Sequence record: MZ726792.1
Source of the DNA: Escherichia phage vB_EcoM_ASO1B
Reading direction: 5' to 3' (one strand)
Length of the DNA stretch: 64,000 nt
The notes beneath the pieces are model-generated. The model did no database searches. It was not told where the DNA came from and saw only the letters and a program-made list of their open reading frames with translations. Positions within the stretch are counted from its first letter, which is position 1, and the number at the start of each line of letters is the position of its first letter. Positions 5,061 through 42,735 of the stretch are shown here, one piece after another. The position numbers were made by a program, and so were the translations under genes.

Positions 5061-5136
5061 GTGGCCTTATCATAAATGGTAATGACCCATGCTGTGAACA
5101 TGGTCTATACGGGTTCAAATCCCGTAGGTCACCCCA
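5061..5136 (+). tRNA. tRNA-His (anticodon GTG)
   Basis: D-stem TCAT/ATGA, perfect anticodon stem CCATG/CATGG with loop CTGTGAA, T-loop TTCAAAT, CCA. Confidence 0.7.
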
Positions 5137-5141
5137 ATTTA

Positions 5142-5218
5142 TAGTCCAAGTAGCTTATATGGTTAAAGCGCGTGTCTGAAAAACATGAGAAGAGGGTTCA
5201 AATCCCACTGGACTACCA
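5142..5218 (+). tRNA. tRNA-Phe (anticodon GAA)
   Basis: Perfect 7-bp acceptor TAGTCCA/TGGACTA, anticodon loop CTGAAAA, T-loop TTCAAAT; 5' end and D-stem register uncertain. Confidence 0.55.
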
Positions 5219-5234
5219 ATTTCAAAGGTGCTTA

Positions 5235-5969: not shown

Positions 5970-5971
5970 AT

Positions 5972-6064
5972 GGAAGATTAACCCTAAAAGGTAAGGGAGC
6001 AGTTTGCTAAACTGCCAGTAGCTGAGAAATCGGTGTACCAGTTCAAGTCTGGTATCTTCCTCCA
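5972..6064 (+). tRNA. tRNA-Ser (anticodon GCT), long variable arm
   Basis: Perfect acceptor GGAAGAT/ATCTTCC, perfect anticodon stem GCAGT/ACTGC with loop TTGCTAA, 21-nt variable arm, perfect T-arm, CCA. Confidence 0.75.
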
Positions 6065-6068
6065 ATTT

Positions 6069-6144
6069 GAATCCGTGACAGAAATGGCTATGTGCCTGTC
6101 TGCAAAACAGGTTTATAAGGGTTCGAGTCCCTTCGGATTCTCCA
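6069..6144 (+). tRNA. tRNA-Cys (anticodon GCA)
   Basis: Perfect acceptor GAATCCG/CGGATTC, perfect anticodon stem CCTGT/ACAGG with loop CTGCAAA, T-loop TTCGAGT, CCA. Confidence 0.75.
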
Positions 6145-12285: not shown

Positions 12286-13389
12286 ATGTTGACTAATTCT
12301 GAAAAAAGCAGATTTTTCCTTGCTGACCTGACTGGTGAAGTCCAGTCTATCCCAAATACTTATGGGTATATTTCCAACTTAGGTCTGTTCCGTTCAGCAC
12401 CAATCACCCAAACTACTTTCCTTATGGACTTGACTGATTGGGATGTTAGCTTGCTTGATGCGGTAGACCGTGATAGCCGTAAAGCAGAGACTAGCGCACC
12501 TGAGCGTGTTCGTCAAATCAGCTTCCCAATGATGTACTTCAAAGAAGTTGAAAGCATCACTCCTGATGAAATTCAGGGTGTACGTCAGCCAGGCACTGCA
12601 AACGAACTGACTACTGAAGCTGTAGTACGTGCTAAGAAGCTGATGAAGATTCGTACCAAGTTCGATATTACTCGTGAGTTCCTGTTTATGCAAGCTCTGA
12701 AGGGTAAAGTTGTTGATGCTCGTGGTACGCTGTATGCTGACCTGTACAAGCAGTTCGACGTTGAGAAGAAGACTGTTCACTTCGACCTTGACAACCCTAA
12801 TGCTGACATCGACGCTTCTATTGAAGAACTGCGTATGCACATGGAAGACGAAGCTAAGACTGGCACTGTAATCAACGGTGAAGAAATTCACGTAGTTGTT
12901 GACCGTGTATTCTTCAGCAAACTGGTTAAGCATCCTAAGATTCGTGACGCTTATCTTGCACAGCAGACTCCGCTGGCTTGGCAACAGATTACTGGTTCTC
13001 TGAGAACTGGTGGTACTGACGGCGTTCAGGCTCACATGAACACCTTCTACTACGGTGGTGTTAAGTTTGTCCAGTACAACGGTAAGTTCAAAGACAAGCG
13101 TGGTAAGGTTCATACTCTGGTGAGCATTGATGGTGCTGGTGCAGAGGTTGGTGTAGGACACGCTTTCCCTAACGTTTCTATGCTTGGTGAAGCAAACAAC
13201 ATCTTCGAAGTGGCTTATGGTCCATGTCCTAAGATGGGTTACGCAAATACACTTGGTCAGGAACTGTACGTATTCGAATATGAAAAAGACCGTGACGAAG
13301 GTATTGACTTCGAAGCTCACTCTTACATGCTGCCATACTGTACTCGTCCTCAGTTGCTGGTAGATGTTCGTGCTGACGCTAAAGACTAA
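12286..13389 (+). CDS. major capsid protein (lambda gpE-like family)
   Basis: 367 aa, position after protease and decoration genes, gpE-like sequence features. Confidence 0.75.
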   Translation: MLTNSEKSRFFLADLTGEVQSIPNTYGYISNLGLFRSAPITQTTFLMDLTDWDVSLLDAVDRDSRKAETSAPERVRQISFPMMYFKEVESITPDEIQGVRQPGTANELTTEAVVRAKKLMKIRTKFDITREFLFMQALKGKVVDARGTLYADLYKQFDVEKKTVHFDLDNPNADIDASIEELRMHMEDEAKTGTVINGEEIHVVVDRVFFSKLVKHPKIRDAYLAQQTPLAWQQITGSLRTGGTDGVQAHMNTFYYGGVKFVQYNGKFKDKRGKVHTLVSIDGAGAEVGVGHAFPNVSMLGEANNIFEVAYGPCPKMGYANTLGQELYVFEYEKDRDEGIDFEAHSYMLPYCTRPQLLVDVRADAKD

Positions 13390-14342: not shown

Positions 14343-14740
14343 GACTCTTAAACAGACACAGCTTTGTAGTAAAGCGTAAAGTCTCTGAAGACGGTTATTA
14401 TAATGATGATGGTGATTGGGTAGCTTCACAAGATGTTGTAGAGGTTAACTGTAAAGGTAATATCCAGCCATATATCAAAGGTTCTGTAAAGAATGGTACA
14501 CAGATTGCTTTACCGGAAGGTATTAGGCTTACCGATACAAGAATCCTGTATACCACATATAAACTTAGAACTTCAGATGATGTAGAGTGGAATGAGTCTG
14601 ACATTGTTATGATTGATGGTCATGAGTATGAAGTATTTATGACTATGGATTGGTCACAGCAATTAGCCCATACGTCCCATTATGAATATATCATTATTAG
14701 AAGGGATAAAATGAATGCAGTTAGAAACAGCAGAACTTGA
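14339..14740 (+). CDS. hypothetical protein (133 aa), likely head-tail joining
   Basis: ORF in track; translationally coupled to neighbours. Confidence 0.45.
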   Translation: MRLLNRHSFVVKRKVSEDGYYNDDGDWVASQDVVEVNCKGNIQPYIKGSVKNGTQIALPEGIRLTDTRILYTTYKLRTSDDVEWNESDIVMIDGHEYEVFMTMDWSQQLAHTSHYEYIIIRRDKMNAVRNSRT

Positions 14741-15314
14741 AAAAGGTCTAGTTAGAACCTTAGTGGATGTTATTGGTCACAGACTAGCTCGTGATAAGAA
14801 TAATAGACCAAATGTAATTAGAGCTTACCCTTCTGATAACTCAAATGACAAAGGTTTAAAACCTGACCAGCCATTTATTACCGTATATTGTCAAGATGCT
14901 GCAACACCTTATGGTTGGGTTCTTGATAAGTTTGTTGAGGATGATGTAGTTTGCTACAGAATTGCTTTTCAGATTCCTGTATTAATTACGGTGAATGGTA
15001 AAGGTGCTCACAGTATTATGCTTGAGCTTAAACAACGATTAGAGATGAGTTCAGTCAGAGATTTAATCCTTGAAGAAACAGGAGCTACAGTACTGGACAC
15101 TGGAGCTATCCCGAATGACTATACTTATCTCAATACAGATTTCGAAAATTCTGCACCTCTTGTTGTAACTCTTGTAAAAAACTCAGTCCTGAAGGATGAA
15201 CGTGGAAGTATTATTGAGCGTGTCATTGTTGATGGTGAGTTGGTTTATGAAGAAGGACAAGAGCCACCAGAATATACTATCCATCTAGATGTAGACTCCA
15301 AAGGGGTAAAATAA
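14715..15314 (+). CDS. hypothetical protein (199 aa), possibly tail completion
   Basis: ORF in track immediately upstream of the putative sheath gene. Confidence 0.45.
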   Translation: MQLETAELEKGLVRTLVDVIGHRLARDKNNRPNVIRAYPSDNSNDKGLKPDQPFITVYCQDAATPYGWVLDKFVEDDVVCYRIAFQIPVLITVNGKGAHSIMLELKQRLEMSSVRDLILEETGATVLDTGAIPNDYTYLNTDFENSAPLVVTLVKNSVLKDERGSIIERVIVDGELVYEEGQEPPEYTIHLDVDSKGVK

Positions 15315-16667
15315 ATGTGGAATCCAATTGTTAATGTAGATATTACATTGAACACCGCAGGAACTACAAGAGAAGGTTTTGGTTTGCCACTATTCTTAGC
15401 TTCAACAGATAATTTTGAAGAAAGAGTACGTGGTTACACTTCCTTAACTGAAGTTGCTGAAGATTTCGATGAAAACTCTGCTGCATATAAGGCTGCTAAA
15501 CAACTTTGGAGTCAGACTCCTAAAGTAACTCAGCTTTATATTGGTAGACGTGCTATGCAGTACACTGTATCAATTCCTGATGCCGTTACCGAAAGTACAG
15601 ACTACTCAATTACTGTAGCTGCTGGCGGTGGAATTTCTCAACCATACCAGTACACAGCACAAGATTCAGACACTGCTGAGGTAGTGTTGCAACAGTTTAA
15701 AACACAGATTGAAGCTGACCCAACAATCAAAGATAAGGTTTCTGTGAATGTAACTGGTAGCAATGGCTCTGCCACAATGATTATTACCAAAGCTGGTGAT
15801 AATGACTTTGTGAAAGTAACAACCACAGCACAGACTGTATACATTGCAAGTACAACTGCCGATACAGCATCAACTGCTCTGGCAGCTATCGAAGCTTATT
15901 CTACCGACTGGTATTTCATTGCAGCAGAAGACAGAACTCAACAGTTTGTCTTAGCAATGGCTTCTGAGATTCAGGCTCGTAAGAAAATCTTCTTTACGGC
16001 TAACTCCGATGTAACAGCCCTACAAGGTACAGAATTAGCCAGTGCAAATGATGTTCCAGCACAGCTTGCTAAGAATATGTACACTCGTACAGTTTGCTTG
16101 TGGCATCACGCAGCAGCAGAAGATTATCCAGAGATGGCATACATTGCTTATGGTGCTCCATATGATGCAGGCTCAATTGCTTGGGGTAATGCTCAGCTAA
16201 CTGGCGTAGCAGCTTCTCTACAACCATCTAATCAGAGACCTCTGACAAGTATTCAGAAGTCTGCTTTAGATGCACGTCACTGTAACTTTATTGACCTTGA
16301 TGGTGGTGTTCCAGTGGTTCGTAGAGGGATTACCTCTGGTGGGGAATGGATTGATATCATCCGTGGTGTTGACTGGTTAGAATCAGACCTGAAAACTTCT
16401 CTGAGAGACTTGCTAATTAACCAGAAGGGTGGTAAGATTACTTATGATGATACTGGTATTACTCGTATTCGTCAAGTCATTGAAACCTCTCTGCAAAGAG
16501 CAGTCAACAGAAACTTCCTGTCATCTTACACAGTTAATGTTCCTAAAGCCTCTCAAGTTGCTTTGGCAGACAAGAAAGCTCGTATCCTGAAAGATGTTAC
16601 CTTCGCAGGTATCTTAGCAGGGGCTATCTTGGATGTTGACTTGAAAGGTACAGTGGCTTACGAATAA
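15315..16667 (+). CDS. putative tail sheath protein
   Basis: 450 aa gene followed by a 148 aa tube-sized gene, chaperone pair and tape measure, the canonical contractile-tail order. Confidence 0.5.
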   Translation: MWNPIVNVDITLNTAGTTREGFGLPLFLASTDNFEERVRGYTSLTEVAEDFDENSAAYKAAKQLWSQTPKVTQLYIGRRAMQYTVSIPDAVTESTDYSITVAAGGGISQPYQYTAQDSDTAEVVLQQFKTQIEADPTIKDKVSVNVTGSNGSATMIITKAGDNDFVKVTTTAQTVYIASTTADTASTALAAIEAYSTDWYFIAAEDRTQQFVLAMASEIQARKKIFFTANSDVTALQGTELASANDVPAQLAKNMYTRTVCLWHHAAAEDYPEMAYIAYGAPYDAGSIAWGNAQLTGVAASLQPSNQRPLTSIQKSALDARHCNFIDLDGGVPVVRRGITSGGEWIDIIRGVDWLESDLKTSLRDLLINQKGGKITYDDTGITRIRQVIETSLQRAVNRNFLSSYTVNVPKASQVALADKKARILKDVTFAGILAGAILDVDLKGTVAYE

Positions 16668-17842: not shown

Positions 17843-25858
<8,016 letters not shown>

Positions 25859-30166: not shown

Positions 30167-31066
30167 TTACTTGCCTACTGACAGAGGTGCTTCAATCTTC
30201 CCTGCATGTTGGTAGTTGTTAATTCCACCAATAAAGTCACTTGCAGTAAGATGTTTTAAGTCACTTAAAGTGTTAAGCTGTACACCAATCTCAAAAGTAG
30301 GTGCATGGAACTCTTCATTGTTCATCAGTTCATAAACCTGCTTCATATGGTTCTGATAAATCTGAGTATCTCCAAAGACACCTATCAAGTACCGTGGAGT
30401 GTATCCAGTCATCTTGCAAAGAACTTCCAGAATAAAACCATAAGACGCAATATTAAATGGAAGTCCTAAAAAGGTGTCTACAGAACGTTGATACCATTGT
30501 AAGTCAACTTCACCTTCATTAGTGATATAAATCTGAAACAGAACATGACAAGGTGCTAAAGCCATTGAGTTTGCTGCAATATCTGCTGCATTCCAAGCAT
30601 TAACAAGCATGTAACGGTCTGTGATATCACCCTTCATCTTCGTTACTAAGGCCTCTAACTGGTCTACAACACAACCATTATGACCTTCGAAGTTTCTCCA
30701 CTGAACCCCGTAGATTCTCCCACCTGCATCTTCTAACCAGTCTTGCTCAGAAGAATAGTTAGAGCTTAACCAACGTTTAAAATCATCTGACCAGATGGTC
30801 CAACGTTCTCCATCATTTTCACCCCAAGTGCGATAACGGAGTTCACCAAGTTTATTCTCACCATTCAGGAACCATAAAGCTTCCCCAATAACTTGCCGTG
30901 TAAACACCTGTTTAGATGTTAAGAGTGGGAAACCAGTTCTCATATCAAAACGAAACTGTGGTGGAGCAAATGCAGAGATAACATCCCCAGTTCGTGTAGT
31001 ACGCAGTTCACCAACGGATAAAACATGGTTCAGGATATTTTTGTAACTCAAATCAGCTTGTGACAT
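30167..31066 (-). CDS. thyA: thymidylate synthase (ThyA family)
   Basis: Motifs FPLLTSKQV, LWFLNG, YGVQWRNF, APCHVLFQIY (catalytic Cys), QRSVDTFLGLPFNIASYG, GDTQIYQNH; adjacent to DHFR. Confidence 0.85.
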   Translation of the reverse strand: MSQADLSYKNILNHVLSVGELRTTRTGDVISAFAPPQFRFDMRTGFPLLTSKQVFTRQVIGEALWFLNGENKLGELRYRTWGENDGERWTIWSDDFKRWLSSNYSSEQDWLEDAGGRIYGVQWRNFEGHNGCVVDQLEALVTKMKGDITDRYMLVNAWNAADIAANSMALAPCHVLFQIYITNEGEVDLQWYQRSVDTFLGLPFNIASYGFILEVLCKMTGYTPRYLIGVFGDTQIYQNHMKQVYELMNNEEFHAPTFEIGVQLNTLSDLKHLTASDFIGGINNYQHAGKIEAPLSVGK

Positions 31067-31067
31067 A

Positions 31068-31613
31068 TCAAAAGTGTCCTTTTACTTGTGGAACATAAAT
31101 TTCAAAAGTTGCTTTACCATCCTCTGATGGTTTTGACTGTACCTTTGTAAATACACGGTTATCATACAGCTTCTCAAAGAAGTTTTCAAAAGGTAAATGC
31201 ACAGTGGCCTCTTCAGTAACTTTATGGAAGACTGTATGGAACACCACACCAGCATACGGTAAAGCATTGACAAGGACACCTGCACCACCAATTACAAAGA
31301 CATCTTCATCAATAGAACTATCAAGATACTTCAAAAATGCTCCAAAGGATTCTTTGTTGGCCTTAGCATACATTACATCATCTTTGCCAAAATCTATGCC
31401 TAAGTATGGTACAGAATTTGTTAAGATGAGATTTGCACGTTCTGGTAAAGGTTTACTCCCCAGAGTCTTGAAAGTCTCATTACCCATCACTACTAAGTTA
31501 TTTTTAGTGAGTCTCTTAAACTCTTGCATGTCCTGTTTATGTCGAGGCCACGGCATACCAGTTGGAGTACCAAACTCTCCATTTTCACCACTTGCAAAGA
31601 TTAATTTAATCAT
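31068..31613 (-). CDS. folA: dihydrofolate reductase
   Basis: 181 aa with GMPW, VVMGNETFKTL and VIGGAGV motifs in DHFR-typical spacing. Confidence 0.8.
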   Translation of the reverse strand: MIKLIFASGENGEFGTPTGMPWPRHKQDMQEFKRLTKNNLVVMGNETFKTLGSKPLPERANLILTNSVPYLGIDFGKDDVMYAKANKESFGAFLKYLDSSIDEDVFVIGGAGVLVNALPYAGVVFHTVFHKVTEEATVHLPFENFFEKLYDNRVFTKVQSKPSEDGKATFEIYVPQVKGHF

Positions 31614-31870
31614 TTTGTAAACCCTCTCTTAATGAACCAGTTGATAACATTCTTCACAGCTTTATTGCTATGGTAGATTAAGTGCGGTGTAGGTTGGTAT
31701 GAACCATAAGCCCAGAAAGCAATGATTTCACTACACCCTGTACACCTTGTGCTCTCTTCAGCAATATGACCGTTGACTATTTCACTCACCTCACCTTGCA
31801 AGTCTGTACACCCACAATGTGGACAACGTATAGGTGTTCCATCAGACTCATAGCAGTATTCAATTTTCAT
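31610..31870 (-). CDS. small Zn-ribbon protein (86 aa)
   Basis: CPHCGC ... CTGC cysteine pairs. Confidence 0.5.
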   Translation of the reverse strand: MKIEYCYESDGTPIRCPHCGCTDLQGEVSEIVNGHIAEESTRCTGCSEIIAFWAYGSYQPTPHLIYHSNKAVKNVINWFIKRGFTK

Positions 31871-32392
31871 CTATTTAACCTCAAAAACTGGCTCAAGAAC
31901 CAATATAAAGTCTACACAGTCATCTTCTTCATCCAGAATACCATCAAAGTTCTTAGGAACGAAGTCGAAGAGGCTCATAACAAAACAGTCAGAAGTGACC
32001 TTGATAGTTCCTCCCATGTTCTCTACAGTCAACACTGTACGACTTTCTTTTACCTCCCTCAGAAGATTACCCACAAAGTCATCTAAGAAGTACTTCATCA
32101 GTGACTTAAAACCTTTAGGGTAATCTGTACCAGAGTATGTTTCAATCTGAGGCACAAGCTTAACATTTATACTAGTCTTTGTTAAGAACGTGTTAGAGAA
32201 CATGCTATCAGGTAACTTACAAACAGTCTTTCCAGTACCTTCATGCTCAATCTCAACAAAACCAGCTTCATCGCCACATGTAACTATTTTAAAAGATGCT
32301 TCATTCTCATACTGTGAAGCCATAAACTTTTTAAGCATCTCTTTAAGGAAATCTGCATGAGCATCTTGTAAGTAGATATCAATCATAATCAA
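31871..32392 (-). CDS. hypothetical protein (173 aa)
   Basis: ORF in track, co-oriented early block. Confidence 0.5.
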   Translation of the reverse strand: MIMIDIYLQDAHADFLKEMLKKFMASQYENEASFKIVTCGDEAGFVEIEHEGTGKTVCKLPDSMFSNTFLTKTSINVKLVPQIETYSGTDYPKGFKSLMKYFLDDFVGNLLREVKESRTVLTVENMGGTIKVTSDCFVMSLFDFVPKNFDGILDEEDDCVDFILVLEPVFEVK

Positions 32393-32399
32393 TCACCTA

Positions 32400-32759
32400 T
32401 TATGGGAACAGACACTTAATGTCGTCGTTTTTGAAAACGAAACTTGTGTAGTTGTGACCATCAACATCTAGCCAAACAGCCTGAACATCTACACCATCAA
32501 GATTCTGGTAAAGCTCTTTGATGAAGTGGTCTTTCACAATCTGGCTGCTAGTTGTCTCCAGCTTAATGTTCGAGATTGCTGAACCTACAGCCATATAACC
32601 CATGACACGTTTCTTCTCAGTATGCTTAATCTTACCATCTTTGTAAGCCATAATGAGATTGGAAAGAATCTTTACACCATAATACTTCTCAAGGTGAGTA
32701 GGTACACCATAAAAGCCTAGTGCGAAATTTTCAGAGTGGATAATGTTTTCACGTTTCAT
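32400..32759 (-). CDS. hypothetical protein (119 aa)
   Basis: ORF in track. Confidence 0.5.
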   Translation of the reverse strand: MKRENIIHSENFALGFYGVPTHLEKYYGVKILSNLIMAYKDGKIKHTEKKRVMGYMAVGSAISNIKLETTSSQIVKDHFIKELYQNLDGVDVQAVWLDVDGHNYTSFVFKNDDIKCLFP

Positions 32760-32760
32760 A

Positions 32761-33090
32761 TTAGTCTGCCAACCTTAAATTAAAATTAACACCAAATTTT
32801 TCACATACTTCCAACATATACTCAAGAGAGACATTCCCAGTGAGGTGGATTATGTTGGATACACGAGCTTGAGAGATGCCACAAATTTTAGCGACTTGCT
32901 CTTGAGAAAGACCTCTGGATTTAATCTCTCTCTTAAAACGATGTGCAACGAAGTCTCTCATTTCGTCTACATCCATTGGACAAATATAACTCTCCATTTC
33001 AGCCTCTCTATTAGCCTCCCAATCATCTTGTGGGGCATAAGGGTCAAAAACCTCATTCATCTTTCTTCTTCCGTTTGCGTGAAGTGTCAA
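32761..33090 (-). CDS. putative HTH DNA-binding regulator (109 aa)
   Basis: C-terminal helix-turn-helix-like segment LSQEQVAKICGISQARVSNIIHL. Confidence 0.5.
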   Translation of the reverse strand: MTLHANGRRKMNEVFDPYAPQDDWEANREAEMESYICPMDVDEMRDFVAHRFKREIKSRGLSQEQVAKICGISQARVSNIIHLTGNVSLEYMLEVCEKFGVNFNLRLAD

Positions 33091-33265
33091 TCAATGAATC
33101 TATGTTTGTAGCCCTAACCTTTTCACGTTCATCATTAAGATAATCATCAAGAGCCTTTTCAATCTGTGAATCATCTTGACAGATGACTGTAAAGACTGTA
33201 AAGCCGTCTGTATCGTCAATTATCTTACCATAACCGCTTCTGGGATGTAACTTTTTAAGAGCCAT
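33053..33265 (-). CDS. hypothetical protein (70 aa, basic C-terminus)
   Basis: ORF in track. Confidence 0.4.
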   Translation of the reverse strand: MALKKLHPRSGYGKIIDDTDGFTVFTVICQDDSQIEKALDDYLNDEREKVRATNIDSLIDTSRKRKKKDE

Positions 33266-33266
33266 A

Positions 33267-33656
33267 TCAAATACCTGTGCAGCTTCTGTTTTCTAAGAAA
33301 TACTCCACACCATACATAGCTTTTTGCATCAAATCTTCTTTAAACTGGATACGGTGGTTGAGCATCGCCTGTACATCAATATCATCACGGTGTTTCTCTT
33401 TAATGTTTGCAGATTGCAGGAAATACTCTGCAAGAACACGATACTGGTAGTCAGTTACCTTATCAGTCATCTCTGTTAAAGACTCTTCAGAGATTGGTTT
33501 AAGTAGTTCACCATTAGCTAGAGCAACACCTTTTACAATCTGGCAAGTATCCTCTGGGACACCTGATAAGTTCACATTTGGCAGTTCTGTTGCATTAACT
33601 GGTAAACTCATTGCCATAACCATTGCAGCAGCTAATAAAATCTTTTTCATAAACAC
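33267..33656 (-). CDS. secreted protein with N-terminal signal peptide (129 aa)
   Basis: MFMKKILLAAAMVMAMSLPVNA signal-peptide-like N-terminus. Confidence 0.55.
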   Translation of the reverse strand: MFMKKILLAAAMVMAMSLPVNATELPNVNLSGVPEDTCQIVKGVALANGELLKPISEESLTEMTDKVTDYQYRVLAEYFLQSANIKEKHRDDIDVQAMLNHRIQFKEDLMQKAMYGVEYFLENRSCTGI

Positions 33657-33719
33657 CTCAAAGTTATATTAAATTTTGTATGACGTTGAGTATAAAAATA
33701 AGCTATAACACCTGAACTG

Positions 33720-34040
33720 TCAACAGATTTTATAGCTTATTTGGCAGATTTTTTATAAGGCTACTGCCATCCTTCCATACATCACCTTACCTTACCTCAC
33801 CTGACCTGACCTGACCCTACCTAACATTACCGTGCCACACCTCACTTAAAAACCCTCTTAAAAGACTCTTAAGTGATGTAATCGAATTTTAATGTAGCTC
33901 CGATTAACTACCCATACCTTACTCCGCCTCACCTTACCTAACCGTACCGTACCATACCTGACATAACCGTGCCTTACCTTATTAAAAGACCCTCTTTAAA
34001 GACCTTTTAAAAAGGAGCCTCCGAAGAGGCTACCTAGTCA
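33720..34040. repeat. non-coding repeat region A: degenerate ACCTNAC-type pyrimidine-rich repeats plus conserved boxes; paralogous to region B
   Basis: Shares three boxes with 35100-35465 (box 1 AAAACCCTCTTAAAAGACTCTTAAGTGATGT, box 2 TTTTAATGTAGCTCCGATTAACTACCC, box 3 TTATTAAAAGACCCTCTTTAAAGACCTTTTAAAAAGG) in different order. Confidence 0.8.
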
Positions 34041-34042
34041 AC

Positions 34043-34483
34043 TTAGAAAGGTTTTCTGCGTTGCTTGTTAATATTAGCTTTCATAGCAGCTAAGTGATTT
34101 TGCTGTTCAATCAGTCGTGAACGTTCTTGATGACTAAGTGCCATAGTGTTCACATTCTCAATCGCTTGAGTGGCTTGCTTTAAAGCACGACCAATCTTAC
34201 CAGACATTTTGCGTTTTGCAATAGTTGCTTGATGCTTAGGTTCAACCACACGATAACCAACACCCATTGAAGCAACCAGATAAATCTTCTCTTCTTTAAG
34301 AAGTTTTTCAATAAACTTTTCAAGTCGGTTTAGACGTGTAAGCGCATAAGCCTTCATTTCATCTTCGTACTTAACAATGTCACCTTGATAAGTTGGCTTC
34401 ACAATACCTAAGAAGGTGTCCATCTCAGAATGTGATACAGTGTCACCGTAACTAAACTTTGCTGCTAATGCTTTTGTATTCAT
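34043..34483 (-). CDS. hypothetical protein (146 aa, basic C-terminus) in repeat-flanked cassette
   Basis: ORF in track; followed on - strand by a hairpin (AGCCTCTTCGGAGGCT) and short T-run. Confidence 0.55.
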   Translation of the reverse strand: MNTKALAAKFSYGDTVSHSEMDTFLGIVKPTYQGDIVKYEDEMKAYALTRLNRLEKFIEKLLKEEKIYLVASMGVGYRVVEPKHQATIAKRKMSGKIGRALKQATQAIENVNTMALSHQERSRLIEQQNHLAAMKANINKQRRKPF

Positions 34484-34485
34484 AA

Positions 34486-35091
<606 letters not shown>

Positions 35092-35099
35092 TTAGTTGA

Positions 35100-35465
35100 T
35101 TGTTAAGTTGTTTGTAAAGAACCCTCAACAGAAGACTCTTTAGAAACTTGGTAGATTTTTAACGTGGCTACTACCATCCACCCATACCTCACCTCACTTA
35201 ACCTCACCCTACCACACCAGACATCACCTTACCATACAGCACCTTATTAAAAGACCCTCTTAAAGACCTTTTAAAAAGGTAAGTCTCATTTTAATGTAGC
35301 TGAGACTAACTACCCGCACTTTACCGCACCGGACCTTACCGGACCGCACATCACCGCACTAAACCAGACATCACATTACCTGACCACACCAAACCAAACA
35401 TCACATTACTTAAAAACCCTCTTAGAAGACTCTTAAGTGATGTTGGTGAGTACCCGTTGGTTTAT
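35100..35465. repeat. non-coding repeat region B (paralogue of region A, modules rearranged)
   Basis: Contains the same three conserved boxes as region A interleaved with ACC/CAC-rich degenerate repeats. Confidence 0.8.
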
Positions 35466-35506
35466 GCTGCTCAGTATACTCACCAAATTTTCTATGTCAA
35501 CAACTT

Positions 35507-36610
35507 TTATTCATAATCTCGTATAACTAACCCAACAGGGAACTGTAAAGACCCCTTACGAGTCATCTTCTGGAACTGAACCGTTAAAGGTTTCCCGATA
35601 AACTCTTCAGGATGTTCAGCAAGATACTGTTTCTTCTCGTGTGTAGTTTTCCATGAAACATCTACAAAGACGTTAGGAAGAGTCTCTACAACGAACTTAC
35701 CATGACCACGTTTATCAGTCTTTACACCAGTCACTTTAAACTCTTCAGTGTGCATCTTCTTGTGCTTAATCAAGAAGTATGAACGGTGACAACACTCATA
35801 GAAAGATTCTTCAGAGATTGAACGGTACATTGCACCTTCAAACTGAGCTTCAACCCACTTATCATGGGCTTCATCAAACTCTTCCCAAGAATTTACACGA
35901 CGAGACTTAACAGGAACAACTTTACAGCCGTCTCTGAAGTCATTCAATGGTGAAGTCTCAATAATATCTCTACGCTCAGGCCACGTCTTAGTACTGTCAC
36001 AGATATCATACCAGTAAAACTTGAGTAGATGTCGGTCAGGATTGTCTTCATTTTTAATCATGGAGACAATATCTTCTAAGTCCAACCCATGAGCATAGAT
36101 TTCACCATCAAATTCATCAACGTCTTTATGGAGCCTCAACATTGCCATAATGTCAGGTATTAGCTCAGTAGGAATTTTATAAATAGTGTTCTCACGAGAA
36201 TATGCTGTAAATACACTACCAATACTTAAGTGTCTTGAAATTCTACAACGTACACCATCCAGTTTTGGTTGAGCATCAGCAGGGAACTTCAGATACTTTG
36301 CATGACTAACCTTTGCAGCATCATGAGCAAGCTGTACACCTACCTTCTCAGTATTCTGTGCAGACTCTTTTGTGTAAGCATAACCTTTACGGTCAACTTG
36401 CTTTTTATACTTTGCAGCAACTTCAAAGAGAGCTTGCTGTTCAGCGTTACGCTCATTCTTTTTACCGATGTTTTTAGGTTCTGCTGTATACTCTTCAAAC
36501 ATCATCTTGCCATTTTCTTTACCATAGGTTGTAATAACTTTGTCACCTACAGCAACACATGACCAGATGTTAAAAGAGCCATCTTTATTTTGTTTGTACA
36601 GTATTGTCAT
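35507..36610 (-). CDS. ATP-dependent DNA ligase
   Basis: Motif I KLDGVR (adenylation lysine), DGEIY, EGAMYRS and LIKHKK-like downstream motifs. Confidence 0.75.
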   Translation of the reverse strand: MTILYKQNKDGSFNIWSCVAVGDKVITTYGKENGKMMFEEYTAEPKNIGKKNERNAEQQALFEVAAKYKKQVDRKGYAYTKESAQNTEKVGVQLAHDAAKVSHAKYLKFPADAQPKLDGVRCRISRHLSIGSVFTAYSRENTIYKIPTELIPDIMAMLRLHKDVDEFDGEIYAHGLDLEDIVSMIKNEDNPDRHLLKFYWYDICDSTKTWPERRDIIETSPLNDFRDGCKVVPVKSRRVNSWEEFDEAHDKWVEAQFEGAMYRSISEESFYECCHRSYFLIKHKKMHTEEFKVTGVKTDKRGHGKFVVETLPNVFVDVSWKTTHEKKQYLAEHPEEFIGKPLTVQFQKMTRKGSLQFPVGLVIRDYE

Positions 36611-36611
36611 T

Positions 36612-36803
36612 TTATTCCTCTGAGTGATACCAAGTATTGCAAGTATTACATGCGTAAAGCTCTAAGTCGTTTTTATCTGGTTTATGAAAACAGTTCGCTC
36701 CGCAGTGGCAACGAAACGGCTTTCCACCAACTGTCAGGATGAAGGATTGAACCTTTCCATCAGGAGTTCGTACAGCATTTTTATGCTTATCTTCTTTGTT
36801 CAT
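36612..36803 (-). CDS. small Zn-ribbon protein (63 aa)
   Basis: CHCGANC ... CNTCNTWYH cysteine motifs. Confidence 0.5.
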   Translation of the reverse strand: MNKEDKHKNAVRTPDGKVQSFILTVGGKPFRCHCGANCFHKPDKNDLELYACNTCNTWYHSEE

Positions 36804-36962
36804 TTATCTCTTGCCTTTGTCAGATTTCATATATGACATATTACTACGCCTTTTAATGAAATGCACAACGCATTTTGGTGTATCTTTTGCATCTTTGATG
36901 TGCAACCTTTCGAAACTGCGCACTGTGAAGGTTGCATCTGTCATTGTTTGCTTAGGTTTCAT
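36804..36962 (-). CDS. small hypothetical protein (52 aa), below ORF-track size cutoff
   Basis: Hand-translated: ATG overlaps the upstream stop and its stop abuts the next start. Confidence 0.3.
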   Translation of the reverse strand: MKPKQTMTDATFTVRSFERLHIKDAKDTPKCVVHFIKRRSNMSYMKSDKGKR

Positions 36963-37165
36963 TTTCTCTTACCACCAATCTCTACGTCGATAACTTGAAC
37001 ATCACCAGCAACATCAAACTTATGAATGATGCTCTCAACAGTATAAGTCCAACCATCAATGCGAACCAACTCACCTTCTCGTGGGACGATTGGATTACGT
37101 TGAGCTATTGTTGTAGTGGAGTGAACAACATCATAACGATAGGTATAGTTTACTAATACTTCCAT
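36959..37165 (-). CDS. hypothetical protein (68 aa)
   Basis: Track ORF 36959-37264 trimmed to internal ATG 37165 with GAGGT ribosome-binding site, avoiding overlap with the lipoprotein gene. Confidence 0.45.
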   Translation of the reverse strand: MEVLVNYTYRYDVVHSTTTIAQRNPIVPREGELVRIDGWTYTVESIIHKFDVAGDVQVIDVEIGGKRK

Positions 37166-37175
37166 CGTGAAAACC

Positions 37176-37433
37176 TCACTCAATAACCGTAGTATGTGAT
37201 TGACCATTTTTGCCATAGCTATAAGATGTTGTTGTTTGAGAGTTTTGGCATCTGACAACAACAATATCTCTGCTTATAGCATCACCATTGAGTTTGTAGA
37301 TTTTGCAGTCTTGCATCTCTGGAGGGAGGCTGTAAGAAGCATCTTTGTTTTCATAAGATGGGTTGCAGCCAGCCAGAAAAATTACTCCAAGTGCAACCAT
37401 TGCTTTCACACAACTCTTAACCTTATTGTTCAC
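37176..37433 (-). CDS. lipoprotein (85 aa)
   Basis: Signal peptide with lipobox LAGC (MNNKVKSCVKAMVALGVIFLAGC). Confidence 0.6.
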   Translation of the reverse strand: MNNKVKSCVKAMVALGVIFLAGCNPSYENKDASYSLPPEMQDCKIYKLNGDAISRDIVVVRCQNSQTTTSYSYGKNGQSHTTVIE

Positions 37434-37569
37434 GATAGTCTACCTCTCTGTATGTTTTTAAATAGTGAGTGATGAGTTCTGGTAAGTCACTACGTTTAAC
37501 GTTTGAACGAAGAAGTGTCCAGTCAAAACCTTTACCAACCCTTCCCCAGAGACTGTACATTTTCTTCAT
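37423..37569 (-). CDS. small hypothetical protein (48 aa), below ORF-track size cutoff
   Basis: Hand-translated: ATG at 37569 overlaps the upstream stop; no internal stops. Confidence 0.3.
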   Translation of the reverse strand: MKKMYSLWGRVGKGFDWTLLRSNVKRSDLPELITHYLKTYREVDYREQ

Positions 37570-37799
37570 AGCAACTCCAGAATATCAATACGTTCACCTT
37601 TGAGTACTCCAGTACGGTCTTTTGCAATCTTACCGTCAACGATAAGGATGTGTGTAGACCTTAAAGCGTCGTTGTTAAAGGTTTTTACGAACTTGCTAGG
37701 CATGACTACAATGGACATCTCCTGAATTAACTCTGGAGTGTAGCAGTTATCATGAAGTTGCTGAATAACGTCTGCAAGTGTCATTTTTGATGTCTCCAA
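37566..37799 (-). CDS. hypothetical protein (77 aa)
   Basis: ORF in track. Confidence 0.45.
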   Translation of the reverse strand: METSKMTLADVIQQLHDNCYTPELIQEMSIVVMPSKFVKTFNNDALRSTHILIVDGKIAKDRTGVLKGERIDILELL

Positions 37800-37990
37800 T
37801 ATTCAATATCTACAAGTTCTTGTGCAATGCTTTTAAGGTTACTTTTAAGGAAAACTTTCTCACCACCAGACAGGGAAGTGTTATCAATGAGTCTATTCAT
37901 TTTCTCAAACAACTTCTGCTTACGGTTCTTGATAGTTTCCTTTGAAGCACCTTTCATCATCGCTGCATGGGTTCTTCCACGATGGCTCAT
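37781..37990 (-). CDS. hypothetical protein (69 aa)
   Basis: ORF in track. Confidence 0.4.
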   Translation of the reverse strand: MSHRGRTHAAMMKGASKETIKNRKQKLFEKMNRLIDNTSLSGGEKVFLKSNLKSIAQELVDIEYWRHQK

Positions 37991-38041
37991 AAGCCCTCCT
38001 ATACAAGATGTAGTATAAGGTACTCTTCCATGAGCACCTTG

Positions 38042-38557
38042 TCAACTTAGTTTTGCAAACTCTCCGTGGAGTTTAATAGCAGCTTCACAGTAAGCTTTAT
38101 GGGCTTCTTCTTCTGTTGTGTACGTCCCTATATGTATAGTCTTACCATTATGGTTAATCTGGGCTATCCACTTACCAGACTTGCTTCTACTTGTACCTTT
38201 TAAGTTTTTTGATGTTCTGGGTTGTCTCCTATTAGACATGTTCTGCTCTTTTGTGGCCTCTCTTAGATTGTCCCAAGCGTTATTCAAACCATCCCCATCT
38301 TTGTGGTCAATGTGTTTATCAGGCCACTTACCTGTCATCCAGAACCAAGCAATTCGGTGATTACCTGTCCTGTATCCTAAAATCTGTGTGTGCATATACA
38401 CACCAGACCTTGTGCGCTTAATTGCTCCGGCTTGGCTTCCAATGACCACCCTACTACTATGTGGAGGTCTGCCAATCCATGTTAAGACCCCTGTTTCGGG
38501 GTCATAATCTAACCAAGACTTTAACTGTTCATGTGTGAATCCACAATCTCTCATCAA
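38042..38557 (-). CDS. HNH homing endonuclease with AP2-like C-terminal domain (paralogue 1)
   Basis: Family signature YDPETGVLTW and HIDHKDGDGLNNAWDNLR; C-terminal GKWIAQINHNGKTIHIGTYTTEEEAHKAY; start overlaps the DNA polymerase stop. Confidence 0.8.
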   Translation of the reverse strand: MMRDCGFTHEQLKSWLDYDPETGVLTWIGRPPHSSRVVIGSQAGAIKRTRSGVYMHTQILGYRTGNHRIAWFWMTGKWPDKHIDHKDGDGLNNAWDNLREATKEQNMSNRRQPRTSKNLKGTSRSKSGKWIAQINHNGKTIHIGTYTTEEEAHKAYCEAAIKLHGEFAKLS

Positions 38558-41253
38558 TGTACCTCATACCAGCTTTTACCAACCTTACCAGTACCAGTTA
38601 CCAGTGTTTCACTCTTTAGTCCTAAGTTCTTAGAGGCTTGCCCGTAATACCAATCAGTGACAGCCTTCACCTCTGCCGTCATACTTTCTGGACATTCCCA
38701 ACTCGTCTCATCGTGATAGGAGCACAATAAACGAGCACCTATAGCTGGTTTGCGACCGTTCAACTTCATCAAACCTTCGTCAATCATACGACGGCAAGCA
38801 AGGTTAATTGCCTCGTTCTGAATCTGACTTTCCGAACCCATAAGCAAATAATTCAACAACTTATGTGGAGATTTACACCACAACCAAGCTCCAGCAACCT
38901 TTACAAAACCCCCTTTAGAGATTGCAGCAGTCTTACCAAACACCTCTTCAAGTGCCTTTTTAGTTGCTTTGTAGTCAGCTTCCAAGTCATCTAGCAGCTT
39001 CTTAATTTTAGGCAAACGAATAAAGTAAGTCTGTTTAGTCAGTGCACCTTCCTGAGTAGTTGCAGCTTTAATCGTCTTAGCAAACTTCTCATCACCTGCA
39101 CCGAACAGCAGTGCATAGATACCATTCTTAGCTTTCTTACGGCCTTTGCTAATCTCATGGAGAAGGTTCTCATCCTGAGTAGCTCGACAAGTCAAGATAT
39201 CCTGCTCATCATTCAAGCTAAAGTAAATACTGTTCAATGTATGTGCATCAGTCCCTGAATAGACAACGTACAGGTCATTCTCAGAGTCATAGCGAAGGTA
39301 CTTATCAATCTCTGGGTTCAGGTACTCATCAAAATGTTTGCAGTAATAGCGTCCATCTTCTTGACGAATGAACTCAATTTCTTCTTTACCTTGCGTTACC
39401 GCTTTGGTGAAGTCTTTATCACCCATAAAGTTACAAAGAAGAACTAGCTGGGCTGAGTTCATATCTACAGAGACAACGTTAGTACCTTCCTCACAAATCC
39501 ATACTGCCCTCATTGGTTCTCCATAGACAGCAGCACCAGACGGTACGTTTACAATACCATACTGTGTCATACGTCCAGTTGAAGTACCAAACACCATTGC
39601 ACCAGCACTAAGGCGACCATCAGGACGAATCTGGTTAAGCCAACCTTTTTCATCATCCTTTGAGTTCTCAATAGTTCTGCGTCGGTGCATCAAAGTATAG
39701 TACTTAGCAATCTTCTGTCCAAGCTCACCTTCAATCGTATCATAAGATGATTCAGTAAGTTTTGGTGAAGTACGGATTAAGCAAGGTTCAAGCAAATCTG
39801 TGTATTTCTTCACAGACCAGTTATGCTCGATGTACTGTACACCTTCATGTTCAACATAACTCAAACCACACCGCTCAACCATTTCCTGCCACTTAGGATG
39901 CTTTGTAATCATCTTTTTATTGTCTTTGAAACGACAAACTTTGACAGGGCGACCGTCTGAGTCTTTCTTGTAGTTCCAGTCATCTGGAATCCAACCAACT
40001 GATTTCAAGTAGTCTTTTACAACTGCTACCTGAGTCATACGAGAAACTTCAAACTCAATTGGTGTATATGGTGCATCAATCAATCCTGTGTAGCGACTTG
40101 ACTCAAGTTCAAAGTGGTTAACAACGTGGCTGTTATAGTACTTCACAGTTTTGACTGTTTTTACTGGCTTCCAGTCTTTGCATTTCTTACCAATCTTTGC
40201 ATTCAACTCATTGCAAATTGCACGAGCATCCTTCATTGCTACAAAACCTTCCTTGTACTCTTCACCAGTTACAGAGTTGGTTGGTGTGTAGCAATTTCTC
40301 TTTTCAATGTTAAAAATCTTTGTAGTTGGCTTACCAAACGGTTTGATTTCGTATGTCTGCATCTCACCGTTACGTACCTGTTGACGATACTTTGTCTTAG
40401 GGTACTTGGTAATTCTCTTCAGTCCATCTGCATGACCGAACGCTTCAACATACTCATTCCAAGCTTTTGCAAACTCTTCTCCAGTGACTTTACCTTTGGT
40501 CTTAATAGTTGGAGGAAGATGTGGTTCAACCTCTGAAGCAAGCTCATTAGTCAACTTGTCAAGTTCCTTTACATGGAACTCCATAAGCTCTTTATCAGCT
40601 TTCCAACCATTGATAGCTTGTTGACTCATCCAGAAAGATGTTTCTTTAGCTCGCATGTAGGTTTCATAAGTGTCTATGCCACACTTCTTAAGCTTGAGAT
40701 ACTCATTATCAAGTGCCCGTTTAGTTTTGGCGTTAATACGGATATCTTCTACAACACGAGTGAAGATTTCTGCATTCCACACACCCCAATGTTCAATCTC
40801 TGGTTTACGAACACCAACACGAGCACCCCATGCAGCCAAGCCATGAGCACCTTTATAACCCTTTGGAGTTGGTCTATCCATCCACTGAACACGAGACTGG
40901 ATAAGAGAATCCTGAAAGAAATTACTCCACGGCTTACACTTTGGATTATCAAAGTTCCATAAATCCGGTGCAATGTGATTGAAAACCCACCAGTCATAAC
41001 CTAGACCATTATGAATGCAAAGACGTTTTGCCTTTAACGCAAACTCAATACCTTCACGTAAGCCACCCTTAATGTACTTGGTATACTTGTGACCGAGGAT
41101 AGGCTCATCTGTAAAGACCCATACAGGTGGCTCTTCATCGTCAGATTTATAGTCTGCGAAAGCCATTACGTGCACTTTAGTGAACTCAAGGAGTAAACCA
41201 TCAGTTTCTGTATCACCAACTAAATGTAAGTTTTTAAAATCTACGTTTTCCAT
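38554..41253 (-). CDS. DNA polymerase, family A
   Basis: N-terminal DTETDGL exonuclease motif, motif B-like RKKAKNGIYALLFGAG, motif C YHDE; start set at ATG 41253 after GAGGGAG (track start 41283). Confidence 0.8.
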   Translation of the reverse strand: MENVDFKNLHLVGDTETDGLLLEFTKVHVMAFADYKSDDEEPPVWVFTDEPILGHKYTKYIKGGLREGIEFALKAKRLCIHNGLGYDWWVFNHIAPDLWNFDNPKCKPWSNFFQDSLIQSRVQWMDRPTPKGYKGAHGLAAWGARVGVRKPEIEHWGVWNAEIFTRVVEDIRINAKTKRALDNEYLKLKKCGIDTYETYMRAKETSFWMSQQAINGWKADKELMEFHVKELDKLTNELASEVEPHLPPTIKTKGKVTGEEFAKAWNEYVEAFGHADGLKRITKYPKTKYRQQVRNGEMQTYEIKPFGKPTTKIFNIEKRNCYTPTNSVTGEEYKEGFVAMKDARAICNELNAKIGKKCKDWKPVKTVKTVKYYNSHVVNHFELESSRYTGLIDAPYTPIEFEVSRMTQVAVVKDYLKSVGWIPDDWNYKKDSDGRPVKVCRFKDNKKMITKHPKWQEMVERCGLSYVEHEGVQYIEHNWSVKKYTDLLEPCLIRTSPKLTESSYDTIEGELGQKIAKYYTLMHRRRTIENSKDDEKGWLNQIRPDGRLSAGAMVFGTSTGRMTQYGIVNVPSGAAVYGEPMRAVWICEEGTNVVSVDMNSAQLVLLCNFMGDKDFTKAVTQGKEEIEFIRQEDGRYYCKHFDEYLNPEIDKYLRYDSENDLYVVYSGTDAHTLNSIYFSLNDEQDILTCRATQDENLLHEISKGRKKAKNGIYALLFGAGDEKFAKTIKAATTQEGALTKQTYFIRLPKIKKLLDDLEADYKATKKALEEVFGKTAAISKGGFVKVAGAWLWCKSPHKLLNYLLMGSESQIQNEAINLACRRMIDEGLMKLNGRKPAIGARLLCSYHDETSWECPESMTAEVKAVTDWYYGQASKNLGLKSETLVTGTGKVGKSWYEVH

Positions 41254-41510
41254 TTTTACTCCCTCTAAAATCATTAACCTCATACATTACTGCAAAAAAT
41301 TATAAAAAGCAAGTTGACAATGCACTTGACAAGGTGTTAATCTTTGCGAAGTGGGTTTTTACTTAAAAGGTTACTTAACAGTTTAACTATACAGATACTT
41401 TAAAAGTCTTAAAAGATTATTTAATAGCTTTTAAAAAGCTTTAAAGTATAACGTATAGAATACGTTAAGATAAAAGATTAAAACTTAATAGTTACTTAAA
41501 AGAGGCTTAC

Positions 41511-41933
41511 ATGCAGAAAATGTTTGTTCACCCAGACATAGCTGACTTTGTTAGAGCTTTGCAAAAGTTGGAAGAACTTGACATTGCTGCTCAACGGGAA
41601 TATGCTCACCATCACAGGAGAATGGTTGATATACAACATGAAATAGAGTTGTCTGAAAACTATGAAGATGACTTAAAATGCTCTGTATTTGAGCATATGA
41701 AAGATGTTGCTACAGCGAGACGTAAAGCTAAAGACACAGTTGCTTTACTAGATTCTCTTAAAAAGAGGTTGCAAAGTGGTACAGACCTGTGTAATCTAGC
41801 GTCACTGATTAACGATGTTGAAACTTCTTGGGATAGGCACTATTATCCACGTTCTGAAAAGACACTTGACTTTTCTTCATCCGAAAACTTAAAATGTTCT
41901 AGAAAGAAACTTAACCAACTGAGAGAGAAATAA
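41511..41933 (+). CDS. hypothetical protein (140 aa)
   Basis: First ORF of + strand block after the divergent intergenic region. Confidence 0.5.
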   Translation: MQKMFVHPDIADFVRALQKLEELDIAAQREYAHHHRRMVDIQHEIELSENYEDDLKCSVFEHMKDVATARRKAKDTVALLDSLKKRLQSGTDLCNLASLINDVETSWDRHYYPRSEKTLDFSSSENLKCSRKKLNQLREK

Positions 41934-41934
41934 T

Positions 41935-42735
41935 ATGAATATCGATGTAGAAAAGATGCTTGAAGAGAAAGGTATTGACGAAGCATTTTTAATCAATGCC
42001 GTAGAAAGCATGGCTATGATTCTTCGTGGTAACAACTACACAGAACAGTTTATGCCTGCAAGCTATAACTTGCCTGAAGACAAGTCTGATAACGGTGCTT
42101 TTGCAGAACAGGTTAACATGATGCTTTGCGACAAAACACTTGCTTTAGCATCTATCGTTGTAGGTGTTGATGCCCTTGCAGAGTTCATTTTTTATGAGAT
42201 GCAGAAAAATGATTATATTGCCATGACCACTGAAGAAAAAGACTTGCTACTACTCGCAGGTAACGATGAACTAATTGACCTGTTAATTTCATCAACTAGT
42301 GCTGTTATGGCTGCTCTTGAGAAGCGCATGGAAGAAAAACTTTCACGATATGAAAAACTTGATTGGGGTGTAGAAGAATTAAACCCACGAATCAAAGAAA
42401 TTATCCAGCAAACTAAAGAGTCTTTGGAAGAAGCTGTTGAAAATGACTCTGTAGCTGATATAGAACCTCTTCAGGTGAAAGTTGCACTGATGATTCCAGC
42501 TATCTCTACGATGATGAATATCGTTGCACTAATCCAACTTTCACAGATGATGGGTGTAAGTATTGAGTTCATTGAAGAGATGACTGGTGGCGTTAGTATG
42601 CAAGCAATAAATGATGTTTTGGTGAACATTGGTGCTTCAATCATTGAAGAGAAACTACGCATTAACTTCGGTGATGATTTTGTGAAGCAAATCTCAGCTA
42701 TGGCTGAAAAAGAGTATGCTGAGCAACTGCACTAA
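41935..42735 (+). CDS. hypothetical acidic protein (266 aa)
   Basis: ORF in track, followed by a terminator. Confidence 0.5.
   Translation: MNIDVEKMLEEKGIDEAFLINAVESMAMILRGNNYTEQFMPASYNLPEDKSDNGAFAEQVNMMLCDKTLALASIVVGVDALAEFIFYEMQKNDYIAMTTEEKDLLLLAGNDELIDLLISSTSAVMAALEKRMEEKLSRYEKLDWGVEELNPRIKEIIQQTKESLEEAVENDSVADIEPLQVKVALMIPAISTMMNIVALIQLSQMMGVSIEFIEEMTGGVSMQAINDVLVNIGASIIEEKLRINFGDDFVKQISAMAEKEYAEQLH

Follow-up and report, generated by a model that had tools for sequence, protein, structure and literature searches.

In Escherichia phage vB_EcoM_ASO1B, a Felix O1-like phage, the 257 non-coding bp that separate the DNA polymerase gene from the first rightward gene probably form a divergent early promoter region with repeats resembling operators. 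This region occupies positions 41254–41510 of a 64,000-nucleotide stretch of sequence record MZ726792.1, referred to here as the window. The locus and its presumed role are already known from the literature and from GenBank annotation, and the region is a real, fairly ordinary regulatory one. The literature searched does not describe its abutting −35 hexamers, its class of promoter with twin TTGACA hexamers, its array of short repeated words, the conservation of that array, or its paralogues elsewhere in the genome. Felix O1-like phages are widely used in the typing and biocontrol of Salmonella and E. coli, and the Felix O1 genome paper states that their temporal transcription programme and replication origin are unknown (PMC3185647). 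The present analysis supplies testable coordinates for two early promoters, a twin-TTGACA promoter class, and a word that marks both promoters and the probable genome ends. If a factor binding this word exists, it would offer a first handle on regulation in the Ounavirinae and would be useful for phage engineering.

The region combines two TTGACA hexamers (41314–41319 and 41326–41331, 12 bp apart) with a downstream array of short words. CTTAAAAG stands at 41362, 41408 and 41495, CTTAACAG at 41374, CTTTAAAAG at 41398 and CTTAATAG at 41484; CTTTAAAG is found at 41439, and the palindrome AGCTTTTAAAAAGCT spans 41426–41440. Six copies of the word family CTT[AT]{0,2}AA[ACT]AG occur within 41362–41502, all on the + strand. 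None of 5000 dinucleotide-preserving shuffles of the region reaches this count (mean 0.24, maximum 4), and in the same test the four occurrences of TTAAAAG and the two of TTGACA each have P of about 4e-4. When words are counted along the window, stretches that do not overlap the region hold at most about two copies, and counts of three to five appear, from the part of the positions listed, to come from adjoining sliding windows. A preliminary description of this DNA had reported an AT-rich region with repeated words and tandem TTGACA, and every word proved to be where it had been placed. The region has a GC content of 26%, falling to 22% in 41355–41510, where the window has 39%, and 41355–41510 is the AT-richest 150 bp in the window. 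Over 100 bp, duplex stability is likewise lowest within this AT-rich stretch (dG −105.1; mean −128.6 and standard deviation (sd) 4.9 over the 64 kb; about 4.8 sd).

The region is shared across a large group of phages. Window positions 40800–42000 share 100% identity with Escherichia phage vB_EcoM_ASO1A (MZ726791; Ounavirinae, Felixounavirus), and 98–99% with more than 200 Felix O1-like phages; for the control region alone, identity is 100% to ASO1A and 99.6% to Felix O1. The window thus comes from a Felixounavirus genome. It does not follow ASO1A throughout, with an offset between the records of 25253 at the window start versus 23615 at 40800, and with some 40-mers unmatched. The 257-bp gap is 99.2–99.6% identical in most Felixounavirus genomes and 81–87% identical in Suspvirus and Mooglevirus, in which the protein encoded by ORF97, the gene on its right, is only 61–76% identical. 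Segment identities were measured against four Suspvirus and Mooglevirus genomes (Table 1). In all relatives, the word array starts between +38 and +49 from the −35 hexamer; the distant relative L043 has five tandem words at 12–14 bp, and Arno162 has six.

These comparisons bear on the simplest alternative, namely that there is no specific element here and the repeats are a by-product of an AT-rich spacer between two promoters. AT-rich DNA does yield many near-repeats, and 23 short inverted repeats of low complementarity were listed in this case. Nevertheless, a mere spacer is ruled out by the identity of the AT-rich leader across genera (82–83%) set against that of neutral sites, the third codon positions of the flanking genes (52–64%). 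In addition, none of the 5000 shuffles reaches the observed word count, and the word array recurs where the flanking protein is only 39–50% identical. The by-product reading is thus hardly credible, and the leader is under strong, base-specific selection.

Promoters were sought with a position-weight matrix (PWM) scan over nine homologous regions, plus the more distant L043 (ORF97 homologue 39% identical), against a background of 128 kb of strand. From the resulting scores and placements we infer the identity of two promoters and their start sites. On the rightward side, a −35/−10 pair with a spacer of 16–18 bp, as expected for one half of a back-to-back sigma-70 pair, is present upstream of the + strand gene. 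This predicted promoter, P1(+), scores 12.4, a value matched by only 22 positions in the background, and its predicted start lies at 41349–41351. The second TTGACA (41326–41331) falls inside its spacer. A strong rightward promoter occupies the equivalent place in every genome scanned, covering five Ounavirinae lineages, and its placement is shared with Kolesnikvirus, Arno162 and L043. The ASO1A record also annotates a promoter at the equivalent of window 41314–41341, as a consensus match.

The leftward promoter, P(−), is predicted mainly from its positional conservation. Its −35 hexamer is invariant and its −10 hexamer keeps TAnnGT with variable middle bases (among 21 unique sequences), and in every lineage the leftward −35 abuts the rightward −35, here at a distance of 1 bp. 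Strong equivalents are found in Arno162 (TTGACC-17-CATACT, 11.0), Erwinia phage PM27 (9.3) and L043 (TTGTTT-17-TGnTAGAAT, 10.7). Transcription from P(−) would start at about 41275–41280, near 41278, leaving a leader of about 25 nt and placing the upstream in-frame ATG codons of the polymerase gene (41274 and 41283) out of use. The polymerase start itself is conserved. The CATTTTTACTCCCTCT block is invariant in six genomes of three genera, and the equivalent of ATG 41253 is the annotated start in Suspvirus and Mooglevirus records; neither the ATG of the longest open reading frame (ORF), at 41283, nor that at 41274 is conserved. Because the polymerase starts at 41253 rather than 41283, the non-coding gap is 41254–41510. 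The length of 227 bp given in the preliminary description for the gap between the polymerase and the first + strand gene has to be revised to 257 bp.

That description had also held that this is the only divergent junction in the window and must carry promoters for both directions. A greedy ORF map agrees on the first point, with + strand genes up to 30130, − strand genes at 30167–41283 and + strand genes again from 41511; small − strand ORFs at 1234–4201 are spurious, as they overlap 25 + strand tRNA genes. On the second, computation supports the rightward promoter by both score and placement in every relative examined, and the leftward one by position, its score in this phage being weak. The same locus has been considered before. 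In the genome paper on Felix O1, Whichard et al. (2010; PMC3185647) assumed divergent promoters between genes 96, which corresponds to the DNA polymerase gene, and 97, found no sigma-70-like promoter in that gap, and by reverse-transcription PCR (Table 3 of that paper) placed ORF96–99, including ORF96 and ORF97, in one temporal class. The ASO1A record annotates one promoter per strand, of which the leftward one (41386–41412, 3 mismatches) differs from the back-to-back P(−) preferred here. It resembles an alternative promoter with a distal leftward −10 hexamer, around which TTAACTATACAG is invariant in three genera; this site has a PWM score of only 6.3 and a poor −35.

Several further promoter elements were considered. 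Within the A-rich block between the promoters, AAAAAATTATAAAAAG, the AAAAAG part shows no variation and stands ahead of the other twin-TTGACA promoters too, and the block may act as an UP element for P1. A possible second rightward −10, TAGAAT at 41456–41461, scores only 6.3 in the window. In Arno162 (TTAACA-18-TAGAAT, 9.7) and Erwinia phages (TTGACT-18-TGnTATGAT, 13.3), TAGAAT or a strong promoter lies 107–118 bp downstream of P1. Two other candidates were rejected: a perfect TATAAT on the − strand (41304→41299) has no usable −35 and is not conserved in Suspvirus or Mooglevirus, and the second TTGACA cannot serve as an independent −35, since no −10 follows it at 16–19 bp in any of the three copies of the promoter module described below.

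Table 1. Features of the control region and its borders in window coordinates, with the identity of its segments to Suspvirus and Mooglevirus
Feature	Position	Strand	Details
DNA polymerase, true 5′ end	41251–41266	−	ATG 41253 (CAT on + strand, 41251–41253); Shine–Dalgarno sequence GAGGGAG 41266→41260
P(−), predicted DNA polymerase promoter	41284–41312	−	−35 TTGCTT 41312→41307; 17-nt spacer; −10 TAATGT 41289→41284
A-rich block AAAAAATTATAAAAAG between promoters	41294–41309		UP-element-like for P1(+); forms P(−) spacer
P1(+), predicted promoter	41314–41343	+	−35 TTGACA 41314–41319; 18-nt spacer; extended −10 TGT-TAATCT 41335–43
First two words, ACTTAAAAGG-TT-ACTTAACAG	41361–41381	+	12 bp apart; about +11 from predicted P1 start
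Alternative distal leftward −10, TATAGT	41386–41391	−	ACTATA on + strand; would face P1; not the preferred site
Imperfect dyad, 55 bp	41395–41449		Centre 41422; inverted repeat, 27-nt arms, 74% complementary
19-bp palindrome, TAACGTAT-AGA-ATACGTTA	41449–41467		TAGAAT (41456–41461) at centre
Last two words, CTTAATAG (41484) and CTTAAAAG (41495)	41484–41505	+	11 bp apart
First rightward gene, ORF97 homologue, 140 aa	41511–41933	+	phrog_4039; adjoins control region in all relatives
Segment: polymerase side	41254–41306		66–87% identity
Segment: promoter core	41307–41354		90–98% identity
Segment: AT-rich stretch	41355–41510		82–83% identity
Segment: third codon positions of flanking genes			52–64% identity

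The AT-rich leader downstream of P1 is 156 bp long (41355–41510), begins about +11 from the predicted P1 start, and has a recognisable internal order, with about eight CTT(W)AA(A/C/T)AG words that all point the same way. Its dyad, at 41395–41449, contains CTTTAAAAG (41398), CTTAAAAG (41408), CTTTTAAAAAG (41428), CTTTAAAG (41439) and the palindrome AGCTTTTAAAAAGCT, and this block is almost invariant across three genera. The 19-bp palindrome that follows has two stem positions with compensatory change across genera, and an exact 15-mer of it is unique in the window. No intrinsic terminator or attenuator is predicted in the leader.

The combination of promoter and words is repeated elsewhere in the genome, in positions outside the window that are given here for the ASO1A record. 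At the other divergent junction (ASO1A 24046–24157), the same promoter-plus-word module is recovered by nhmmer with E 7e-23. Its layout is AAAAAG..GTTGACAA-N4-CTTGACAAGGTGT, followed after about 24 nt by the 12-mer ACTTAAAAGGTT (ASO1A 24110), which lies at the same distance from its twin-TTGACA promoter as does the word at 41361. A third copy is found at ASO1A 13292–13379 (E 2e-7). The promoter class can be written as AAAAAG-N2-4-TTGACAA-N4-5-CTTGACA-N4-6-TAnnnT, then ACTTAAAAG some 24–39 nt further on, and has three exact copies in the genome, of which one, P1, is in the window. A near-copy, TTGACA-N6-TTGATA-...TAATAT, stands at window 846–880, ahead of the tRNA cluster. That cluster comprises 25 tRNA genes at 993–6144, all on the + strand. 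Outside such clusters the words are not a genome-wide promoter motif, as they show no intergenic or sense bias (25 sense versus 22 antisense).

The words are also concentrated in a second type of setting. ASO1A 14734–16269 is a 1.5-kb non-coding convergent region packed with the same words on both strands, often with an 11-bp tandem period. CTTAAAAG and CTTAACAA run forward on its left, and CTGTTAAG and CTTGTTAG in reverse on its right. There are dozens of copies, over 30 of them strict matches, and the arrays are bounded by terminators on both sides. The record PP892526, which belongs to a paper reporting direct terminal repeats determined with PhageTerm, starts at ASO1A 15120, in the middle of this region and where the orientation of the words flips; the arrays therefore probably flank the genome termini. 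For a relative, terminal repeats of 581 bp have been reported (PMC8303462). As a separate matter, the GenBank taxonomy line of PP892526.1 reads Demerecviridae, Tequintavirus, and its sequence is that of a Felixounavirus, so that this line is likely to be a mis-assignment of the record.

This distribution helps to decide at which level the words are recognised. Lying in a 160-nt 5′ untranslated region, they could act in RNA, either as translational-repressor sites, of which the T4 gene 32 and regA operators are examples, or as a nut/boxA-like antitermination element. The six words begin at about +11 in the sense orientation, and the word at 41495 overlaps the ribosome-binding site AAGAGG (41500–41505) of the first rightward gene (ATG 41511); the other junction ends alike, with CTTATAAGAGG-N7-ATG and a word over the Shine–Dalgarno sequence. 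The leader folds somewhat better than its shuffles (z = −2.05) and includes one hairpin with two compensatory pairs. Furthermore, CUUUAACA and CUUAAAA are similar to the 3′ half of boxA in rrn and in lambda. At least 12 intrinsic terminators are predicted along the rightward unit, which an antitermination element would let polymerase pass, and terminator read-through was flagged as unexplained in the Felix O1 paper (PMC3185647).

Nevertheless, a consensus fold of eight leaders shows no net covariation (term +0.2), with compensatory pairs confined to the 19-bp palindrome, and compensatory changes in a dyad would suit a dimeric DNA-binding protein just as well. There is no relevant Rfam match: a scan of 41100–41700 with Rfam 15 returned a single hit, a chance snoRNA match in the coding region of the ORF97 homologue (E 0.42). 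The 5′ GCUC of boxA, which is critical for NusB binding, is absent from the leader by eye, and only the 3′ AU-rich half of the boxA core (GCUCUUUAACAA or CGCUCUUA) is matched; the leaders of Erwinia phages (CCTCTTAACAG) come nearer to boxA. Recognition of the words at the DNA level is preferred because the non-coding terminal arrays, which terminators enclose, are rich in them on both strands, and because the leader lacks net RNA covariation and a relevant Rfam match. A role of the words in RNA is regarded as unlikely.

The sequence features, their departure from chance, their conservation and their recurrence are shown directly, and the favoured explanation built on them can be set out as a sequence of steps. 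Host sigma-70 RNA polymerase would start leftward at about 41278 from the weak P(−), providing expression of DNA polymerase, and rightward at about 41350 from the strong, extended −10 P1(+), entering a unit of about 37 kb for replication and nucleotide metabolism. The two predicted −35 hexamers stand back to back, and P1 would be a member of a small, phage-specific promoter class defined by a second TTGACA within the promoter spacer. Beyond the P1 start, the AT-rich 156 bp would act as a sequence-specific control element rather than as a spacer. We infer that the words in it are binding sites of a sequence-specific factor. Bound to the initially transcribed region, this putative factor would modulate rightward transcription, most simply by repressing or timing it, and it would act likewise at the paralogous promoters elsewhere in the genome.

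A number of observations weigh against this explanation. With a PWM score of 6.7, P(−) is not significant alone, since 558 positions in the background score at least as high (about 1 per 190 nt), and the distal leftward TATAGT (41391→41386) is conserved as well as P(−) is. No start-site mapping or RNA-seq for any Ounavirinae phage was found in the literature searched. The spacings of the words are irregular (12, 24, 10, 31, 45 and 11 bp), and the sense orientation of all six, with the last over the ribosome-binding site, would equally fit a role in RNA. Directly behind the first word, both divergent junctions have GTT in Felixounavirus, and both have ACT in Suspvirus and Mooglevirus. Such co-variation could reflect recognition by a shared factor, or else gene conversion from one site to the other, which would require no common factor.

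The search for a binder belongs with these points. The only annotated regulator is a Cro/CI-type HTH_3 protein encoded in the leftward replication block (window 32761–33090, − strand; Pfam E 6e-10; phrog_1373). No other protein stands out as a candidate to bind the palindromes in the control region, and no link between this one and the words or any other site emerged. The ORF97 homologue was considered as a word binder and set aside, as its PHROG, Pfam, homologue names and fold are all uninformative. Its synteny with the control region is kept down to 39% protein identity and it has only nine homologue clusters; it has no Pfam match above threshold, its PHROG assignment (phrog_4039) gives no function, and its AlphaFold2 (AF2) model is a helical hairpin (predicted local distance difference test, pLDDT, 72) for which a Foldseek search of the PDB gave no match at E < 0.1.

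The region could alternatively, or additionally, be a replication origin activated by transcription. Transcripts from P1, and possibly from a second promoter, P2, would run into the least stable DNA, where they would provide a primer or an R-loop from which the phage polymerase and primase-helicase would then initiate. The repeated words could be initiator sites, a function compatible with the promoter reading and perhaps added to it. The primary origin of T7 has an AT-rich stretch behind its tandem promoters phi1.1A/1.1B, and T4 oriF(uvsY) and oriG(34) each have a middle promoter with a downstream unwinding element. As in these origins, a strong promoter here reads into the most easily melted DNA beside replication genes: the AT-richest and least stable stretch of the window lies directly downstream of the top-ranked P1, in the order of promoter and then unwinding element, the DNA polymerase gene flanks it, and the primase-helicase gene is about 2.2 kb away. 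The phage also resembles T7 in having a T7-type replication set (family A polymerase, primase-helicase and ligase). Direct repeats at about 12–13 bp are conserved across the subfamily, and 41385–41470 folds well as single-stranded DNA (z = −3.4).

In contrast to the T7 and T4 origins, the promoters here are of host sigma-70 type, and the AT-rich part is conserved base by base, with ordered repeats and a base specificity that exceeds the needs of an unwinding element. The promoter-plus-word module is present three times in the genome, and its occurrence at two other promoters fits transcriptional control better than an origin. No match to the DnaA box or IHF consensus (TTATNCACA or WATCAANNNNTTR) was found at up to 1 mismatch in 41200–41560, and Fis and T4 late TATAAATA motifs are absent. 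An iteron-type origin would call for regular direct repeats of about 17–22 bp that are bound by the product of an adjacent initiator gene; the words here are of 8–10 bp and irregularly spaced (12–14 bp in L043), and the product of the adjacent ORF97 homologue has an uninformative fold. No experimental origin data were found in the literature searched. Analysis of GC skew had been proposed in the preliminary description, which raised the possibility of an origin, and it turns out to be uninformative. On the whole pseudo-genome, opened at the presumed left end, cumulative skew has minima at both divergent junctions, the control region being a local one and the other junction the global one; skew tracks the coding strand, on which it is positive in all five gene blocks (0.08–0.16). 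The support for an origin at this site is architectural, and such an origin is judged improbable.

Other regulatory systems offer partial parallels. At icdA P1, direct repeats bound by ArcA-P extend from −12 to +21, with TGTTA elements at 11 bp (PMC4173790). The present array is similar in having short repeats of the same orientation, about one helical turn apart, from the start site or shortly behind it, an arrangement that brings about repression; it departs from the strict 11-bp TGTTA pattern in its spacings of 10–45 bp. An ArcA-P site proper was rejected, as 41254–41510 contains one TAACA and one TGTTA and no 11-bp pair. The minimal ArcA-P architecture, TGTTA-N6-TGTTA, occurs 13 times in ASO1A 14734–16269 versus twice in the 64-kb window. 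A T4-type middle promoter would have the MotA box (a/t)(a/t)TGCTTtA some 12 bp ahead of its −10, and would go with genes for MotA and AsiA. A look-alike with 1 mismatch, AAAGCTTTA (41435), precedes TAGAAT by 12 bp, which is at chance level, since 0.74 matches of this kind would arise at random. Neither MotA nor AsiA is reported in the Felix O1 paper (PMC3185647).

A broader analogy is provided by phi29, in which p6 forms nucleoprotein arrays at the genome ends and the early promoter C2, recognising bendability with a 24-bp period and no defined word. The likeness lies in one repeated DNA signal at genome termini and early promoters, which here would suggest that one and the same factor connects the control of transcription with functions of the ends; the comparison is pure analogy, and a p6 homologue was neither sought nor found. 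In its fullest form, one putative DNA-binding factor, of phage or host, would occupy the three twin-TTGACA promoters and the terminal arrays and couple early transcription with replication or packaging of the ends, with 41355–41510 serving in addition as a transcription-primed origin. We consider this a speculative extension with little chance of being correct as a whole.

Some observations concern the neighbouring genes and the genome at large. Directly downstream of the polymerase gene, with a 4-nt overlap, is an ORF for an HNH homing endonuclease (window 38042–38557, − strand), and Erwinia phages have a different HNH gene on the opposite side, between the polymerase and the control region. 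The second rightward gene (window 41935–42735, + strand) is annotated as a ‘minor tail protein’ (phrog_4251) inside an early replication operon. It has no Pfam match and shares 56–60% DNA identity with Suspvirus and Mooglevirus, and its annotation looks doubtful. Finally, GATC is absent from the 64-kb window, in which about 206 copies are expected under a Markov model, and from ASO1A 1–45000, whereas other 4-bp palindromes in the window are only mildly depleted. The absence of GATC has already been reported for the genus, in VpaE1 (PMC4690856) and Alf5 (PMC5477317), and the distant relative L043 does carry this sequence.

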